A stretch of DNA of 64,000 nt from assembly GCF_038025025.1 (NCBI RefSeq), contig NW_027117338.1, positions 1,984,001 to 2,048,000 of the forward strand, written 5' to 3'. Under the pieces are notes generated by a model. It did not search any database. It saw only the letters and a list, made by a program, of their open reading frames with translations, and was not told where the DNA came from. The DNA is from Phyllosticta citribraziliensis (taxonomy: Eukaryota). How positions within the stretch are numbered: position 1 is the first letter of the stretch; each line of letters begins with the position of its first letter. A program made the position numbers and the translations under genes. Of the stretch, positions 19,025-55,476 are shown piece by piece.

Positions 19025-21008
19025 ATGCAACCAGACCAAACAGACGACCGGATTCTCGACAATGACTCCAAACCCGAGGTCGAACGCTTCGAGGTTGTGT
19101 CCTCCTCCTCCAATGTTCCGTTGGATGGGACCGAGGATGGAAAGGTGTCGATGTCAACCATCGTAGCTGTCTTTGTAAGTCCAGAGGGAGTCACAGCAAG
19201 AGCAAGTTTTGACCATCTGCGGACAGTTTCTCGGGCTTTCTTTCACTGGACCAATCGGTTGCGGTTATACTCTGGTCGCAGGAATCACGCATCAAATCGG
19301 CGCCGCGCTTGGAAATTTGCAGGACATGGTCTGGGTCGCAGGTGGATGGTCGATTGCATCTGCTATTGGGTTCGCTGTCGCCGGTGGCCTGAGTGACATC
19401 TTTGGACGTCGCTGGGTGATTCTTTACGGCAATATGCTCTCAGTTGTTGGTGCTGTGAGTCTTCTCCGTGCGCAAACCTCCGCGAAGACGCTCTTGCTAA
19501 TGGAGGTAAGATTGTCGCTGGCACAGCCGACAAAGTGAATCAAGTGATAGCAGGCTCAACCCTTGTTGGTGCAGGCGCTGGAATGATCTTTGTCGGATAC
19601 CCGGGAATTTCAGAAATTCTGCCTAACAAATATCGGTACGCCCTCCTCTATCCTTCTAAATGCTCGGCTTAGCTGACGAAAGATAGTGGGATTGGACTTG
19701 GATGGACAGAATTTTGCATCAATATCCCATGGGCTAGCTTCAGCGTCATCATAGGCCAGAAACTAGCGAGCGAGGCCACATGGCGTTGGTGCTACTGTGA
19801 GTATCCCCTAACGGTCAGATACCTCGTGGCTTACAAAACTAGACGTTGCGATCATGTACTCCACGATTTCTCTCGTTGGATGCGCCATCTTCTACTTTCC
19901 CCCGACCCGGCCACGCAATGACTTCGACAAGTCTCGCTGGCAAGAATTCAAAGAGTTGGACTTCATTGGTCTCTTCATGTTCACCGGAGGACTCACCATC
20001 CTGCTCGTCGGATTCACTGAGCTGGGTAAGCCTAGTTACAACAAGTCTCTTGTCGCCTCTACGATCGCCGTTGGAGCAGTCATGTTCATCGGTTGCTTCG
20101 GCTACGAGTGGACGGTTGCTCCCAATCCTTTGTTCCCCTTCCACCTCTTCAAAATGGTACGCAAGTTTACGATGCTCCTCCTCGTCAGCTTTGTGGCTGG
20201 GTTCGTGTGGTACTCGATGGCAGCCTTGCTCCCGCAAGCTTCGCTCTACATGTATACCAAGGATCCGACTGAAATCGGCGTAATTGCTATCCCGAACGGA
20301 ATCAGTCTGGTCGTTGGTGGCTGGATCATTCCCTCCTTGTTGCAGTACATCAAGCGTATTCGCGGTCAATTCATTGTGGCCATGTTCGTTCAAACGCTCT
20401 TCACTGCTCTCTACGCCGCAGTCATCCCCAACCACAAGGGCGCTTGGATGACGTTCCAATTCTTCGGCCAAGGATGCTTCACCTGGATCACGACAATTGC
20501 GTACATCGCTGCCGGCCTTGAAGTCCCACAAAAGGACCTTGGAGTCGCTTCTGGTCTCATCGGCACATTCCGGTCTGCTGGAGGCTCTTTCGGCAACTCC
20601 ATCTTCAATACCATCCTGAATAGCGTCATCAATAGCGACCTGGGAGGCAACATTGCGAGCGCCGCCATATCTCGCGGTTTCCCGGCAGACAGGGTCGAAG
20701 GACTTGTTCCTGTGGTCATTCAAGCAGAGTCGGGTGTCCCTGGCGCACCTCAGATGTTGGCGCGGATGGACGGCGTCACGCCCGCGGTCATGGCCGCCAT
20801 AGCCGACACGGTCAAGAACACCTACGCCAAGGCTTTCCGGATGGTCTTCTACGCCAGCATTCCCTTTGGGGTGATCGCTTTGATTGGATCGTTTTTCATC
20901 CACGATTCGAGTGATAAACTTACGAACCACGTCGCTGTGCAGCAGGAGAAGGAGGTACTGTCGGGCAAGACGAATGATCCAAAGAAGCGTATGAGCCAGA
21001 TGGGATAG
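19025..21008 (+). CDS. MFS transporter of the TRI12-like (fungal 14-TM efflux) family, about 4 introns in the 5' part
   Basis: MFS motif A-like GGLSDIFGRRW, SEILPNKYR, WRWCY, FYFPP, LDFIG, DLGVASGLIGTFRSAGG and YAKAFRMVFYASIPFG, with many hydrophobic helices. GT-AG introns start at 19175, 19454, about 19635 and about 19797. Confidence 0.85.
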
Positions 21009-21653
21009 GGTTCAAAGGGAAGTGATTGTTTTATTCTCGTTCCCTAGCTCCTGACTCTCGTGCCTGGGCACTCCATATTGCTTGGTATTTGCGCGATGTT
21101 TTTGGCCGCGGTCCTCTAGATGTACATTTGGCTTTTGCAAGAAAGCTGGTTTGTCCCTGTGCGCGATGCCTGTATGCCGCCTTGTATCTGAAGATGAATT
21201 TTGCGCGGGCGAAATTTCGAAATTGATGTCAATGATGATCCCAACCAGTTGCAAAAGGGGTTGATTGCGGAGACAACGATGAATAGCGAAGGCTGAAGCA
21301 ACTCGAAGCAGAACAAAGAAGACAGTGTCAAACTAATCCAAGAAACATCGAGATCTCCCTGTTCCCACGTTTTGCGACTTGGCTCTCAAGTTCATAGAAA
21401 CATAGGCCAGGGTTCACCTTGACTCCTTCGCTCACGCTGTCGACATTCGCCATACCCACCTTCCACTTAGTTGCGTCAACAAGAGTCTCTGGTGACTTGG
21501 CTGCGAGAATCAGCCCACGGGGCGCTTCCTTCCAGGCAGGCCGCCAGTGCACCATGTTCTTTCAGCCTTGAATCGTTCGACCCTTCAGCTAGGTTACATT
21601 GGCAAGCAAGACAGAAGACTTGGGGGACTCAAGTATCCCGCCACCTCTTCCTC

Positions 21654-21683
21654 ACCGCAACCGCAACCGCAACCACAACCACG
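21654..21683. repeat. (ACCGCA/ACCACA)n hexamer microsatellite
   Basis: accgca accgca accgca accaca accacg read directly. Confidence 0.75.
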
Positions 21684-21760
21684 GAACGACGCACCCCGCT
21701 ACCAACCAACACCACCAGCAAAACAAAAGGACAAAAAGAGACGGCAAAAACAGCTCCAGT

Positions 21761-21838
21761 CAGATCGGCCAGGAGTTGAACCTGGGACTTGCCGTGGATG
21801 CGATGTTTACTCACGACATGCATTACCGCCACCGATCC
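21761..21838 (-). ncRNA. tRNA-like Pol III-type element (atypical tRNA or tRNA pseudogene; identity not assignable)
   Basis: Minus strand reads GGATCGG TG GCG-GTAA-TGC A TGTCGTG-AGTAAACATCGCATC-CACGGCA AGTC CCAGG-TTCAACT-CCTGG CCGATCT G. This gives a 7-bp acceptor stem, a perfect T arm with B box GGTTCAACTCC, and a T5 run 10 nt downstream (21746-21750). Confidence 0.7.
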
Positions 21839-22494
21839 ATAAATGTTTGTATATGGCACTGTATAGGGGGTTAGCGGTTGCAATACATAATATACCAATT
21901 ATTTCTCCCGTCGCCTTTATGTATTTCGCTCATGCGCAAAAGAAGCTAGTGGCTTGCCTTTAATAATCCAAGCTTGAATACCCCCAAGCCATGTCCAAAT
22001 CCAACTTGCTACTCAATTGTGTTGCACGAGAACGCACTTCCTCGCTGTATTTTGTGGAAAACAGTGGTGGAGGGAGTAGAGGCGGCGTCGAGGTGTCCAA
22101 GTAATTGAGTGACATTTCACGAAATTAATTGATTGACTGATTGGCTGGCAAGGTAGGAACACGCGTATATCCTGTTGACCTGGACTCAAGAGCCTCCGCG
22201 CAGGGTACCTGCCGCCCAAATTTTGCGAGTCAAGAACGGGGAGCATTCGCGCAAGCTCCCGTGAGTTGGACGACGGCTAACTGGGAGCGTTTGAAAACGC
22301 GCTGCGCGGCGAGTTGAAGACCTTTCATGATTGGCCCATTGAGGCTTCCTTGGGCTTTTGCCTCGGACACAAACACGCTCGGCTCTCGAATCTCTGGTGA
22401 CCACGGAAGTCTGTTTCAAGAAGGAGATGAAGCTGGCGCCGAATGATTTCTGATTTTTCTTTTTCCTTCGAGGCTCCGCAGGACACCGGACTTT

Positions 22495-23337
22495 TTATTC
22501 TTCAGGGTAGACCATCTTCTTGGTAACACCGCCATCAACGACAATCTCCTGCCCGTTGACGAATTTGCTGGCGCTCAAAAATTCGACTGCCCGGAAGATA
22601 TCCTCGACCTTGCCGACCCTGCCACTCCAATGCCACTCGTGGTCCTCCTTGCTCAAGCCTTCCTCCCATCTCGTCCCCTTCTCGTCCGCCTCCTTGCACT
22701 CGTCGCTCACGTTGATCCACCCAGGCAAAACGGCATTGCACGTGATGCCCATGGGCGCGAGACTGCACGCCAGCGCGTGCGTTAGGCCGAGCAAGCCGGC
22801 CTTTGTGCTGGCGTAGCCTTCAGAGTTGGGCTCCGACTGCTTGGCGCGCGTGCTGCTCATGTAGATGATGGAGCCGCCGGCATCGTCGGCGTGCCTGTTT
22901 TTGCTGCCGCCACTACCGCCTTTGCGCAGCAGCGGGATGCACAGTTGCGACAGCAGCATCGGCGCCGTCAGGTTCGTCTCGACCTGCGCATTCCAGTCTT
23001 CGAGCGACAGGTCCTCGAAGCCTACGCTGCCCACGAAGCCCGTGGCTGCCGCGTTGTTGATCAGCACATCAAGGTGGCCGTCGAAAAAGGCTGACGCGCG
23101 CGCCACGGCTGCGCGGATGTCGCCCGGTTGCCGCAAATTTGTCAAGTGTGCTGAGAAGGCGTCATTCCTGGCGGCTGAGATGGACGCCAGGTGTTTTGTC
23201 GTCGTGTGGTTGAGCTCTTCGGTGTTGTTGTCGATGAGGAAAACGCGATGCCCGCGTTGCAGCAGTAGCCGCGACAGTCCCCGACCAATGCCTCGAGCCG
23301 CGCCGGTGATGAGGAAGTTGAGAGGTTGCGATGCCAT
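22495..23337 (-). CDS. Classical short-chain dehydrogenase/reductase (intronless)
   Basis: TGAARGIG cofactor motif, LINNAA, YASTK catalytic motif, PGWI, and C-terminal VDGGVTKKMVY. Confidence 0.92.
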   Translation of the reverse strand: MASQPLNFLITGAARGIGRGLSRLLLQRGHRVFLIDNNTEELNHTTTKHLASISAARNDAFSAHLTNLRQPGDIRAAVARASAFFDGHLDVLINNAAATGFVGSVGFEDLSLEDWNAQVETNLTAPMLLSQLCIPLLRKGGSGGSKNRHADDAGGSIIYMSSTRAKQSEPNSEGYASTKAGLLGLTHALACSLAPMGITCNAVLPGWINVSDECKEADEKGTRWEEGLSKEDHEWHWSGRVGKVEDIFRAVEFLSASKFVNGQEIVVDGGVTKKMVYPEE

Positions 23338-26119
23338 GCTCTTGAAGTTGTGCCAATGGATTGCTGAGATGATGGGAACGTTCAGGTTTGAGATGAACTG
23401 AAGTTTGGAGTTCGATGAGCGTGACGTCACCAAAAATGGCCCGTGCTAGTTTGACCTTTTCCGGGACCAGCTGTTGATGGCTGTTGTTGGAACTGAGAAG
23501 CCGTCGTTTGGACTTTTCCATGTCGGGTCTTTGAGAAATCATGTCATATACAGGACTGGAGCTGATGTTGCTGTGAATGTCAGATGAAAATAAGAGAATG
23601 AAACCACGTTGAAAAAATCATCCACTGCACAGGACATCTTCAGAATGGAATCAAGTCAGTACAGCATACTCTCAAAACCACGATTGGGAGGAGACCCGGT
23701 CAAGAAGGTCGGATATCGGCAAATCACCACGTGTAGCGCTTTTCCCAACCGTAAACAAAAGTCTAGGAAGATTGGTCTTGAACCCCACGGCGAAACATCG
23801 ACTTTGCTCAATCATGCTCCTTGATCTTTGCAGGCTGTCATTTCAAGCAACCATGCAGAGGCCTGGAGTCAGCCTACCTACCCGAAGTACCGTTTTCAGG
23901 CTCCCACTCGATCATTCTAGACCGTACGTGCGGAGGAGAAGTGCAAGAGGAAGAGAAAGAGGGACGTGCGAGAGTCTCCACGCCCTTCTGGACCGGAGGT
24001 CTCCAGCCGTGCGTCTGCCCTGTTCGCCTTGCGTATAGTGGGTCATGCTAGATGCCACGCGAGAAAGCTCTTGCCTTGAAACTGATGAGATGTTTGTTGC
24101 TAGCGGGACGACCCGTTTCCAGTAACGGCGAGCGTTTGTTTGAGGATTGCTTTCTTTTCTTTTCTTTCCCTGTTGCTCGTTTGGCAGGTCTAGAACGATG
24201 GGTCAATGAGGCAAATAGTGGATCTTTTTGTGAAAGGATAGTGGCGCGTTTTGCCGAGCGGTGACTTGCGGTGGTCGAGCTCAAGAATCATGTCCATTCG
24301 TTTCCTTGAAAAACGACAACTTCGGACCACCATCACCCCATTCAGCGTACCAGTTCAGCTCCTTGACCCCGTCTAGCAACCGCCGGCCGCGGCCACGAAG
24401 CGACGCGACGTGAGCAACGCAGCCAGCGACCTATAGTTGGATCAGACTCGTAAGCATACGAGGCGCGAACTAGGAAGATGCCCGTCAAGCCTTGCCAGCA
24501 AGTGTTCCAGAGAACGAAACATCGAGGGACCCGAGGACGTCGGACCCTTATTCCAAGCCGTTTTTGGACGGTGGAGGCGCGGCAATGGGTATCCGGGGAG
24601 TGGTGCGACTGGGAGTGCCGGGCTAGGCTCTCCCAAGGAACGAGGGGCTCGGTGGGAGAAGGTTCAGTCGGGCCGAACCGTGTTTCGACAGACAAGGAAC
24701 AAGAAAGTTTGCTGTCGACTTTTTCAACGACAACAACAACAGCTTTGACAGATTCGAAGCGCAAAAAGAGGACAAAACGTACAACAGCCGGGATTCGCTG
24801 CTGGTCACCCACGCAACTACTAATCGGCCGCAACGTAGCTTATCTATGGAAGAGCGGACGGGGTTCCGAGTTCTCTACGTGCTGTGGTCGTACGTGGAAG
24901 GCTAACGAAAGAGATTTCAATATAACCACAATCTTTTGATCCTGTTGACTTGTTGATCGCCTCTCGAAGTGACGAGCAACCGGAGTGGAGCACGAATCAC
25001 GTGGGTTCCGTCGCATGCACGGCAGGAAGCGGATCCAGCACCCATCGCGAAATGGCCAATGCTGCTGTCGCCGTCTGAATGTCTCCTTGGATCAATCGGT
25101 GGCCATGCGATGGCGCCGCGCGCCCTTGCCGACGGATTATTCGGGAGTCGGCTCGTCATCTGTCAGCTCGGCTGCGACAATGGAGAGGGCAAACCGAAGG
25201 CTTGAAGCCGGATTTGGCAGCAAAAGTTGTACAAGGCCGACTGGCATTGGTGAGACCGGAGTCACACGCGACGCTGCTGTCTATGAGGGCGCGTGGCCTG
25301 GCGAGCGGGGTTGTACGCAAAGCAGCAGTGTTTGTTTTGGTCGTCCAGTCCAGGGTCGTTGGTAGACGCGCACACATGGAGCAAGTGGCCTGGGCGGATG
25401 CGCGCAGATCCGCAAATCGGTGGCTCCAGCGCACATGCAGGTCAGGTCGTGGTGAGGTGGTGATGTTTGTGGACGGACTCGAGCGGCGGCGACCAAACAG
25501 CGGCGTCGGAGGGTGACGTGCAGCCGTCTAGAGATTCCCCCCTTGCGGCCGACAGAGGGGACCTGGCGACCTGGTACGAGAGAGGGTGACGGGGTGGCTT
25601 TGGCCTTTGAGCTTAGCTGCAATCCTGGTGCTGGTCGCTCGTGCCTGGGTCGTGGCGGTTTCACGCCTGACCAATGGCCTCTGCATACAGCAGGCCTGAG
25701 AAAGCCAACCTAAAGCCAGAGCCCTTTTTTTTCTCCTCGTCCTCTCCAAGACCTTCCTCATTCCTCGACCACTCTCTTTTAATCTCGCATTCTCCCCTCC
25801 CACCTCCGCTTCGAATCCACTCTCATTCGCCCGCCGCACCTCCTCACCCCCGTCGACTCAACAACCTTTTGGGGGCCCTTGGAGGAATCACCCCCCTTCC
25901 ACTCATTCACCACTTTTACGCCGTCTTTCCCGGCGCGCATTCTTGCTAGTGGCGGTTTCGTGATATCCCTCGGCAGCTTCAGCCATCCGAGCCTAGACCA
26001 AGACAGTCTTGAATACTTCGGCAAGGATTTCGCCAGCTCCCAATTCGCAACCGCCGTTGGCCCTGCCGGCAAGTCGATCTCGGGCGCCCCATCTGCCTCG
26101 GGGCCACTCTACGCTACAA

Positions 26120-52717: not shown

Positions 52718-55476
52718 ATGATCGTTCGCGAATCCGCAATGTCGCATGGTAGTCGCCCACACTGAAGCGCCCTCTTTCCACACTCTAATTCGTACCAGTA
52801 CCCTCTAGAAACCAACCTGAGTGGCCACCGAGATCACCGCACCAGGCGCTCATGAGCTCCCCGAGCGGACGCAAGAAATGGCAGCAGCGTCAGCTCGAAC
52901 AAACTTCTCCCTCGCCCTCTCCGGCCAAGCGCGGCTCACGAGCGTCGCAGCTACTATCTGACGGCGTAGACATCGGCGACGATGAAGACGAAGACGAAGA
53001 GACGCTTCAGCTGAAGCTCCAGGCGATCGAGGCGCGGCTGAAGCTCAAAAAGCTGCAGGCGTCAAAATCCAAACAGCCGACCGAGCCGCAGACCGTACCA
53101 GACGACAAAAGATATGGCATGTTTAGTCCGAGCTCAAGGGCACGACGAGGGAACACCAGCGTACCGGCTCAATCCAATCGCACAGAGCCAGCGGTCCAAG
53201 TGCCGCTTTCGCCGACACCAGATCGCAGGGCTGCACCGAACGCTGTTTCGCCAGCAAAGCTGCTCGGCATCGACAAAGGGCTGCGGGCGCAAGACGTCTC
53301 CTTGAAGCGCCCAGCAATTCCCAAGTTCAACCCGAGCGCACCTAGGGCCGGTTCCGCGTCAGGTCATTTCCGGACGAGTTCGACGGCAAGCCAAAATTCC
53401 ACTCTGAACTTCCAGAAACCCAAGTCGTTTAGCGAGCGATTAGCAGAGAGTCGCTCCAAGTCGAACGAAAAACAGGCAAAAGATGAACGGATTGAGAAGG
53501 CGAGGACGCGTGGATTTGGTCTCAGCGCGGCTGAAATGGCTAGACAAGAATCGCGCCCGTCCTCACAACACTCAAACGAGAGTGTCACCCGTTCGTTTGA
53601 AAGCCGACCGAAATCCATTCTCAAGGATCCCACACGGGAATTCCAATCTCACGACACAAGAAACAACTCCTTTACTTCAACCACCAACGGCAGTAGACCT
53701 GCGTCGCGTCAAGCACCTCCCCAAAAGACCACTGCTTCAAAAACAAAGGAACGACCAAAATCTTTCTCTGGTTTTAGCGAGAAAAAGTCTGCCCCTGAAG
53801 AGAATGACGCAGCAAAAGAGAAGGAATGCTTCGAGACCTTTTCCGGATTCCATCTTTCCCGGCGCCAAATCTCTCACAACATCCTCGCACGAGCATTTGA
53901 CAAAAAGGAAATTTTTCCGCTTCCCCGCCTACTCTCCACCGTAAAGTCCCCCGATTACGAGCCCCCAGATGTGGAAGCAGACTTCGTCGTTCTAGGAATA
54001 ATTTCATCGAAAACTACGCCTCGAGACACACGCAACGCCCAAAGGACAGCTTCTGGAGCAGAACCTGAAGAAAGTGGACCCAACCGATCCAAGTTCATGA
54101 TTTTGCGTCTTACGGACTTTAAGTGGGAAGTTGACTTGTTTCTATTCGAGGAAGCCTTTTCCCGTTTCTGGAAGCTCACGCCTGGCACTGTCATTGCAAT
54201 CTTGAACCCGGGGATCATGCCTCCTCGTGACAAGGCCAATGGCCACTTCTCGCTCAAGATGAACTCAACTGACGACACAATCCTCGAGCTTGGCACTGCC
54301 CGAGACCTCGGGTTTTGCAAAAGCATCAAGGCCGATGGCCAACAGTGCAGCCACTGGATTGATCAGCGAAAAACGGAATACTGCGACTTTCACGTTTACT
54401 TACAGCTTGAGAAGACGAAGAGCGGTCGAATGGAAGTCAACACTATGACAGGCTTCGGTAAGGGTCCTCGCTCATCCCGCTTCGAGCCATCCAAGAAATA
54501 CGACTCTGGCCAAGGCAAAAGATATGACAAGTATCTCAAAGAGACAATGTACATCGTGCCCGACGGCCGCAGTACAGCCGACAAACTCGACCACGACGAG
54601 GATGCTTGGAATCGGGGCATGAGCCGCGAAGAGCTTCACCGTAAGCGCCTCGAGGAAAAGGAGCGAGAGCGCGAGCTTGCTGAGAAGCTTGGAAAGATGG
54701 GAAACAAGGTCGGCAGTGAATACATGCGTGTAAGAGGCGCGACCTCTGCGGCCAGCAATCACGAAGGCAGTCAAAGCAGACCCCGGCCAAGCTCGGCCAC
54801 AAGCACCACGTTGACGACACAGCAAAGTGCAGCAGCAGCACAAACCCGACCCCGGAGTCGTACAAACACGCCCTTCGATGATCCCTTCGTCACTGCCGGC
54901 GCAGAGCACCGTGACGGCCCTCCACCTCCTGATGCTGCTGCCCTTGGACTGCTGGGAAAACGTGCTGCAGACGTCTCTCTTGCTCCCGTCAAGCGCAAAC
55001 GCGCTGCTGGTGCCACCGCATCTGCGAGGTCTGGTTCTGCTGGCACTTCCACGCAAAGGTCGGAGCCGATGGGCTGGGGAGGAGCAAACAAACGCGGGCT
55101 TTTACTCAGTCCATCCAAAATGCGTCCGGCTGGTGATGACGGCGGTAGCAGACGTGTAGACGAGATGCTCGCCTTGCGGCAGGGGAGCAGCAAAGGCAAT
55201 GCCCCCGGTGGTGCCGTTGCAGCGCAGGCGACCAACGGCAGCACTGCTGCTTCTGGCGACAAGGAAAAGCCCGCTCTGAGGATCGCGACCGACGAAGCTT
55301 CTGTGTCTAGTTTCGATAGCCAGAGTCAGAGCCCGGTCAAGAAGAAGGCGCGGCTGGTGATCGAAGGCAAAGGCATCCGGGAGCCGGGCCGCGATAGCCT
55401 GGGAGTGGCTGCGGGCAAGAGGTTATTGTCCGCTGCAGGAGACACAGATGACGATGACGACTTGGAGATTATTTGA
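52718..55476 (+). CDS. MCM10: DNA replication factor Mcm10 (Cdc23); probable exon 1 52718-52748, intron 52749-52798
   Basis: WPPRSPHQAL N-terminal motif and coiled coil, an OB-fold (DFVVLGIISSK...KFMILRLTDFK...GTVIAILNP) and a CCCH zinc finger CKSIKADGQQCSHWIDQRKTEYCDFH. Confidence 0.88.

Follow-up and report, generated by a model that had tools for sequence, protein, structure and literature searches.

In a 64,000-nucleotide stretch of fungal, Phyllosticta-like DNA, referred to here as the window, a spacer between convergent genes contains a sequence that can be read on the minus strand as a tRNA with a very small D arm and a long anticodon arm. The question raised by this locus is whether it represents a functional RNA of unusual design, a binding site for TFIIIC, the head of a mobile element or the remains of a tRNA-type gene. 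The first-pass annotation considered the element to be intact, but the relatives described below identify its D arm as the product of a deletion. Altogether, a Phyllosticta-like fungus probably carries a multi-copy family of tRNA-derived, Pol III-type genes, of which the element would be a degenerate paralogue and in all likelihood a pseudogene.

Anatomy of the Element

The features of the element, with their positions in the window, are the following:

21762..21838, minus strand: tRNA-like cloverleaf body, identified from the sequence, from an MFE fold that is a cloverleaf and as the sole T-arm plus acceptor geometry in the window; composed of acceptor, truncated D arm, long anticodon arm, 4-nt variable region and T arm
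21838-21832 and 21768-21762, minus strand: acceptor, GGATCGG/CCGATCT, 7 pairs including G1.T72
Directly after the acceptor 5′ strand, minus strand: linker between acceptor and D arm, T8 and G9, read from the sequence
21829-21820, minus strand: truncated D arm, GCG-GTAA-TGC, three base pairs closed by the tetraloop GTAA; A26 comes next
21790..21818, minus strand: anticodon arm, 7-bp stem TGTCGTG (21818-21812)/CACGGCA (21796-21790)
21811-21797, minus strand: anticodon loop, 15 nt, T32-G33, without U33
Between anticodon arm and T arm, minus strand: variable region, AGTC, 4 nt, read from the sequence
21785-21769, minus strand: T arm, CCAGG-TTCAACT-CCTGG, T stem 5/5 paired, B-box-like GGTTCAACTCC
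21761, minus strand: discriminator G, read from the sequence
21750-21746, minus strand: T5 run, 10 nt past the discriminator, Pol III terminator-like
21839..21850, minus strand: 5′ leader, common to at least two relatives; records 3, 6, 12 and 18 align through 21850
21697..21761, minus strand: 3′ flank, alignable to one relative and far more diverged than the body

The stems, loops, variable region and T5 run that had been proposed for the minus strand are thus all present in the sequence. The MFE and the centroid structure calculated with ViennaRNA both correspond to the described cloverleaf, with a free energy of -25.7 kcal/mol. The advantage over shuffled sequences is only modest, as 12 of 200 shuffles fold equally well or better (z = -1.79). 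A custom scan of the window searched for T arms (5-bp stem, TTCRANY loop) that border immediately on a 7/7-paired acceptor, and found one site, which is the element. The same scan finds at least one site in 10 of 200 dinucleotide shuffles. Taken by itself the anatomy is suggestive and does not decisively exclude a chance origin. Chance is nevertheless rejected on the basis of homology, as the organism has other loci from which numerous contigs align to the element.

The features of a canonical tRNA that can be recognized are the 7/7 acceptor pairs (one of them G.T), the 5-bp T stem and a loop of the GTTCRANYC type. The D arm departs from the canonical form, as the window copy has neither A14 nor G18, while the relatives carry both. 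The A-box consensus is TRGCNNAGTGG, and the window copy agrees with it at 8 of the 11 positions. The B-box consensus is better preserved: the motif GGTTCRANYC has a single match on both strands of the 64-kb window, and this match is the GGTTCAACTCC of the element.

Recognition by tRNA and RNA Family Models

ARAGORN called no tRNA in the window, neither at default settings nor with introns allowed. When the threshold was lowered to 80%, the program made 126 calls in the 64 kb, among which the element appears as a distorted 'Arg(tcg)'. The Rfam model for tRNA (RF00005) gave no match at E ≤ 10 in a 601-nt or a 111-nt search. Above the Rfam gathering scores, the window yields only one 5S rRNA gene. 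The best Rfam match of the element itself, obtained in the 111-nt search, is mascRNA-menRNA (RF01684), with 18.6 bits and an E value of 0.084.

This match, together with the clean cloverleaf fold and the presence of a terminator, would fit a functional non-decoding tRNA mimic, in which the reduced D arm and the long anticodon hairpin have been selected. The element indeed resembles mascRNA/MEN-beta in that an acceptor and a T arm, whose loop is B-box-like, enclose a reduced, non-decoding middle part. However, the score lies far under the gathering score of 42.5, the match covers the acceptor and the T arm only, and the z-score of the fold is no better than -1.79. Moreover, mascRNA is a vertebrate RNA, and the element, unlike mascRNA, does not form the 3′ terminus of any long non-coding RNA known. 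The reduction of its middle part also has a different nature, which becomes apparent from the relatives.

A Multi-Copy Family of Relatives

Four public sequencing runs contain parts of the region 21300-22300. Of these, X1 and X3 come from organism A, X2 from a surface metagenome and X4 from organism B. The contigs aligned to 21000-22500 at a likeness of at least 80% comprise 22 pieces from X1, 8 from X2, 11 from X3 and 1 from X4, and the records cited here are taken from 25 of these 42 pieces. None of the four runs is on record as RNA. For X1 and X3 an RNA origin is a guess, and the ends and levels of transcripts are not visible in contigs.

Among the matches listed, contigs from other loci follow the element over 21762-21803 and then continue into flanks of their own (records 4, 5, 11, 13 and 19-23). 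Single letters also differ from the window. Position 59 is a C in the window and a G in most relatives, which is seen on the plus strand as G to C at 21775 in 9 contigs of X1 and 8 contigs of X3. Likewise, 21766 reads T instead of C on the plus strand in 5 contigs of X1. We infer that the acceptor strands GGATTGG (5′) and CCAATC (3′) found among the relatives are linked in one gene. Judged from these alignments, the element is a member of a multi-copy tRNA-like family of the same organism. T runs also occur in the trailers of the relatives, as read from their loose ends. Exact-pattern scans of metagenome contigs, using a 28-nt pattern of loop, stem and T arm and a 24-nt pattern of T arm and acceptor, returned 0 loci. 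Literature searches yielded no description of such a tRNA-like family for Phyllosticta or the Dothideomycetes. One contig of X3, with a length of 1222 bp (records 18 and 20), apparently contains two family members about 500 nt apart, which suggests that the family may be locally clustered.

Three kinds of relatives, from X1, X2 and X3, align across the D arm among the matches listed. The first kind is X1 record 6, whose alignment spans 21776-21850 and shows 4 substitutions as well as 7 inserted letters. Five of the latter lie behind 21826 and read CACTA on the plus strand and TAGTG on the minus strand, which gives the D arm GCGT-AGTGGTA-ACGC. The second kind consists of X1 record 7 and X2 record 14. 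These align over 21776-21827 with 3 substitutions (21810, 21811 and 21822) and without gaps, and their loose end behind 21827 continues with the same 5′ part of the D arm and the acceptor strand GGATTGG. The third kind, which comprises X1 record 3, X2 record 12 and X3 record 18, aligns from 21743 or 21760 to 21850. Here, GCCA is inserted behind 21824 and TA behind 21826, resulting in the D arm GCGT-AGTTGGCA-ACGC. In all three kinds the D arm is canonical, with a 4-bp stem, A14, G18-G19 and A21. Over this region the relatives have 5-6 more letters than the window and a C where the window has T at 21822 (A to G on the plus strand).

Authenticity of the Window Sequence

A shortened arm in a single copy could in principle originate from the assembly. 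However, X2 record 15, an independent contig from a DNA metagenome, is identical to the window over 21817-22500, including the truncated D arm. The truncation is no assembly slip. On the other side, X3 record 17 is identical over 21000-21792, including the T arm with C59 and the acceptor 3′ strand. The letters of the window itself are thus matched by contigs on either side of 21793-21816, and by none in between. The assembly may itself have been derived from one of the runs X1-X4. The single contig of X4 is identical over 21500-21761 and ends at the edge of the element, so that it is uninformative on conservation.

Contig depth differs on the two sides of the element (21000-21792 and 21876-22500), with 1103 versus 126 in X1 and 464 versus 20 in X3. 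This 10- to 20-fold difference in X1 and X3 looks like RNA or an artefact and is no evidence of expression. The X3 contig that ends at 21792 does so in Illumina adapter letters.

The D-Arm Deletion and Probable Decay of the Window Copy

Compared to its relatives, the window copy carries a private 5-nt deletion in the D arm and a change of C23 to T. The miniature D arm with a GNRA-type loop that had been noticed in the first-pass annotation, GCG-GTAA-TGC, does exist, but it is a remnant of this deletion, and a design is not supported. The short D arm is regarded as a disabling lesion because the deletion removes conserved residues of the D loop as well as positions of the A box.

The history of the locus was probably as follows. 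A family member would have been duplicated at the DNA level together with short flanks. Then T13, A14, G15, T16 and G18 would have been lost from the D arm, with point changes consisting of C23 to T, two substitutions in the loop and G59 to C. What looks like a miniature GNRA D arm would be the remainder after the deletion. The residues of the D loop that dock on the T loop would have disappeared and the A-box half of the promoter would be broken, which would make a role as decoding tRNA impossible for the window copy. Since the B box and the T5 run are intact, transcription may still take place. With these elements surviving, TFIIIC could still bind, and the locus would at most produce a weak, unstable and badly folded transcript that is prone to degradation.

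The same comparison bears on the mimic with a selected D arm. The D arm is normal in three kinds of relatives, so that the short arm is a private loss of 5 nt, and the A box is damaged as well. A designed mimic, as put forward earlier, is consequently given very little weight. The option of a recent pseudogene, which had also been raised, is the one that fits relatives with normal D arms differing by the 5-nt deletion. It had been stated in advance that a near-identical normal tRNA, distinguished by a small D-loop deletion, would argue against a functional element. Relatives with this difference do exist, but the parent is not demonstrably a normal tRNA.

Some observations do not fit easily with a pseudogene. 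Each of the four stems has retained its pairing, and a clean cloverleaf is obtained as MFE fold. Pairing that includes G.U pairs had been considered as not expected from decay. This argument is weak, as wobble pairs are the product of C-to-T transitions in G-C pairs, and G.U pairing has the look of early decay because half of all transitions in a G-C pair give a wobble. Two of the three wobble pairs, G1.T72 and T29.G41, are common to the relatives, and the third one, G12.T23, is a C-to-T change in a G-C pair. For annotation, the label tRNA-like pseudogene would suit the locus better than that of a new RNA class. It also illustrates clearly that the loss of a few letters may imitate a minimal D arm that looks 'designed'.

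The Anticodon Arm and the Parent Family

Unlike the D arm, the anticodon arm is shared. Among the matches listed, every relative that reaches this arm has the same stem, with T32-G33 directly after it and without U33. The stem shows some variation. It has 8 pairs in some relatives, in which the A of the window at 21811 is replaced by G. According to the loose ends behind 21803, the T at position 29 is a C in one group, and another group has T at position 30. Positions 34-36 read AGT in the window copy, GTT in the closest relatives and GCA in another group. Some relatives additionally carry 1-3 extra letters in the loop (insertions behind 21802, 21808 and 21813), and the loops of the relatives range from 12 to 17 nt. 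In contrast to these variable parts, TCGCATCC beside the 3′ strand of the anticodon arm is constant. From the distribution of these features over the matches, the unusual anticodon arm is inherited from the family and not private to the window copy. The anticodon loop of some relatives, GGTTCAAAC, resembles a second T loop.

An alternative explanation for the long arm is that the locus is a working tRNA gene with an intron, encoding Thr-AGU or, in the other register, Tyr-GUA. The standard intron of eukaryotic tRNAs lies between positions 37 and 38. Under this rule, positions 34-38 of the window copy read AGTAA, as in a Thr anticodon loop, with an intron of 12 nt, and position 33 is a G. The likeness to intron-containing fungal nuclear pre-tRNA genes extends to the approximately 12 extra nucleotides in the anticodon arm, the extended helix and the T run downstream. 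However, when all contiguous 12-nt excisions from the 29-nt arm were enumerated by hand in both registers, none resulted in U33 together with a purine at position 37 and a 5-bp stem, so that, in contrast to these pre-tRNA genes, excision does not lead to a 7-nt loop of this composition. The absence of U33 in either register had also been remarked on earlier. Other differences are that the 3′ splice site would be situated inside a continuous helix, and that the relatives, which read GTT or GCA instead of AGT, have insertions and deletions within what would be the mature loop. In addition, A14 and G18 are missing, and both ARAGORN with introns and the Rfam tRNA model fail. Of the readings considered, a working intron-bearing gene is the least probable, being highly improbable.

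Several isotypes were considered for the parent. Asn-GTT, Cys-GCA and Thr-AGT were rejected on account of G33, and Ala-CGC on account of A3-T70.

As the relatives themselves have no canonical anticodon loop, the parent is possibly non-decoding, and the window copy is not necessarily a pseudogene of a normal tRNA. Since the parent is not demonstrably a normal tRNA, a tRNA-derived repeat or gene family is a possible source. In a subset of fungal genomes, tRNA-derived elements with non-canonical cloverleaves occur, according to the tRNAscan-SE 2.0 paper (PMC8450103). With the fungal nuclear tRNA pseudogenes and tRNA-derived repeats mentioned there, the element shares a cloverleaf-like form, remnants of A and B boxes, a multi-copy nature, a non-canonical structure and a low score with tRNA finders, or none at all. 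It differs from them in the 5-nt D-arm deletion that marks the window copy, in being apparently duplicated at the DNA level with flanks instead of by retroposition, and in a parent family that combines normal D, T and acceptor arms with an anticodon stem of 7-8 bp and no U33.

A further reading, which is unlikely although not negligible, is that the parent family consists of lineage-specific, structured, non-decoding tRNA-like Pol III RNAs, of which the window copy would be either a decaying member or a short-D-arm variant that is still made. Such a family would have normal acceptor, D and T arms, while its anticodon arm would have been replaced by a hairpin of 7-8 bp with a variable loop, a constant TCGCATCC and no U33. 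The wider interest of the locus lies in this parent family, as all members observed share the non-canonical anticodon arm. A genome-wide view could tell an expanded tRNA-derived repeat from a family of non-decoding RNAs.

Mode of Copying and Flank Homology

Homology between the element and its relatives is not restricted to the body. Relatives of the first and the third kind align through the 12-nt 5′ leader, and those of the third kind also through 19 nt of the trailer, including the T5 run. Duplication at the DNA level is deduced from the homology in the leader, which would not be copied by retroposition.

The most extensive flank homology is found in X1 record 2, whose alignment runs from 21697 to 21827, contains 23 differing letters as well as 3 gaps and thereby includes 65 nt of the 3′ flank. 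Ten of the listed substitutions and all 3 indels are situated in 21722-21758. Another 7-9 substitutions have no listed position and are probably located in the flank, near the end of the alignment. On this basis, the body probably contains 4-6 substitutions in 66 nt, compared to approximately 17-19 substitutions and 3 indels in the 65 nt of flank. A body that is less diverged than its flank would fit some past constraint on the window copy, which would speak against a pseudogene. Constraint on the relative alone could explain the better preservation of the body as well.

These data are also relevant for the suggestion that the element is the tRNA-related head of a SINE or of another mobile element. 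The multi-copy nature of the family agrees with it, and tRNA-derived repetitive elements with non-canonical cloverleaves have been reported from some fungal genomes (PMC8450103). However, several relatives diverge at the acceptor 3′ end or 1-2 nt past it, their loose ends showing flank divergence from 21758-21762 onward, and they have T runs of their own without a shared body. Furthermore, the homology reaches into the 5′ leader, and neither terminal inverted repeats nor flanking direct repeats were found around the element. The earlier proposal of a SINE head finds little in these observations and is considered very improbable, in comparison with a decaying copy that was duplicated with its flanks.

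Genomic Context and the TFIIIC Alternative

The element lies in a spacer of 1.5 kb between the following two open reading frames:

19812-21008, plus strand: TRI12/MFS transporter fragment
22495-23445, minus strand: short-chain dehydrogenase (SDR), 93%, 92% and 85% identical to proteins from three species of Phyllosticta

The MFS (plus) and SDR (minus) genes are convergent and flank the element, as the first-pass annotation had indicated. Four open reading frames distributed over 21012-21963, including those that overlap the element, gave no hit to Pfam at E ≤ 1.

In yeasts, insulator function can be provided by tRNA genes and by B boxes. By analogy, the locus could have been kept as a TFIIIC-binding boundary between the MFS and SDR genes, dependent on the B box only and comparable to an ETC site, whatever the fate of any RNA. 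This possibility agrees with the intact B-box-like GGTTCAACTCC, being the only such motif in the 64 kb, as well as with the position between convergent genes and a 5S rRNA gene 2.9 kb away. With yeast ETC sites and tRNA-gene insulators the element has in common an isolated, intact B box in a spacer between Pol II genes. It differs from these sites in having retained a whole tRNA-like body and a terminator, and a boundary function would be a prediction here. Two points oppose this reading. Firstly, position 59 in the B-box region differs from most relatives. Secondly, the B box of a tRNA-type gene that decayed recently would in any case persist for some time. A boundary selected for its B box is for these reasons regarded as rather unlikely, and decay of a family member accounts for the same motif.

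Some other features of the region deserve mention. A hexamer array, (ACCGCA) x4.5, is located at 21654-21680 in the 3′ flank of the element, and the long contig of X1 breaks there. A scan for bacterial-type promoters and terminators found nothing, which is irrelevant for a fungal locus. The 5S rRNA gene (RF00001, 80 bits) occupies 24776-24895 on the minus strand, which is the strand of the element, and represents a dispersed 5S gene beside a tRNA-type locus. Further away, at 52789-55476 on the plus strand, the window contains an MCM10 homologue with zf-primase and MCM10 OB domains, an ordinary housekeeping gene that confirms a eukaryotic context.
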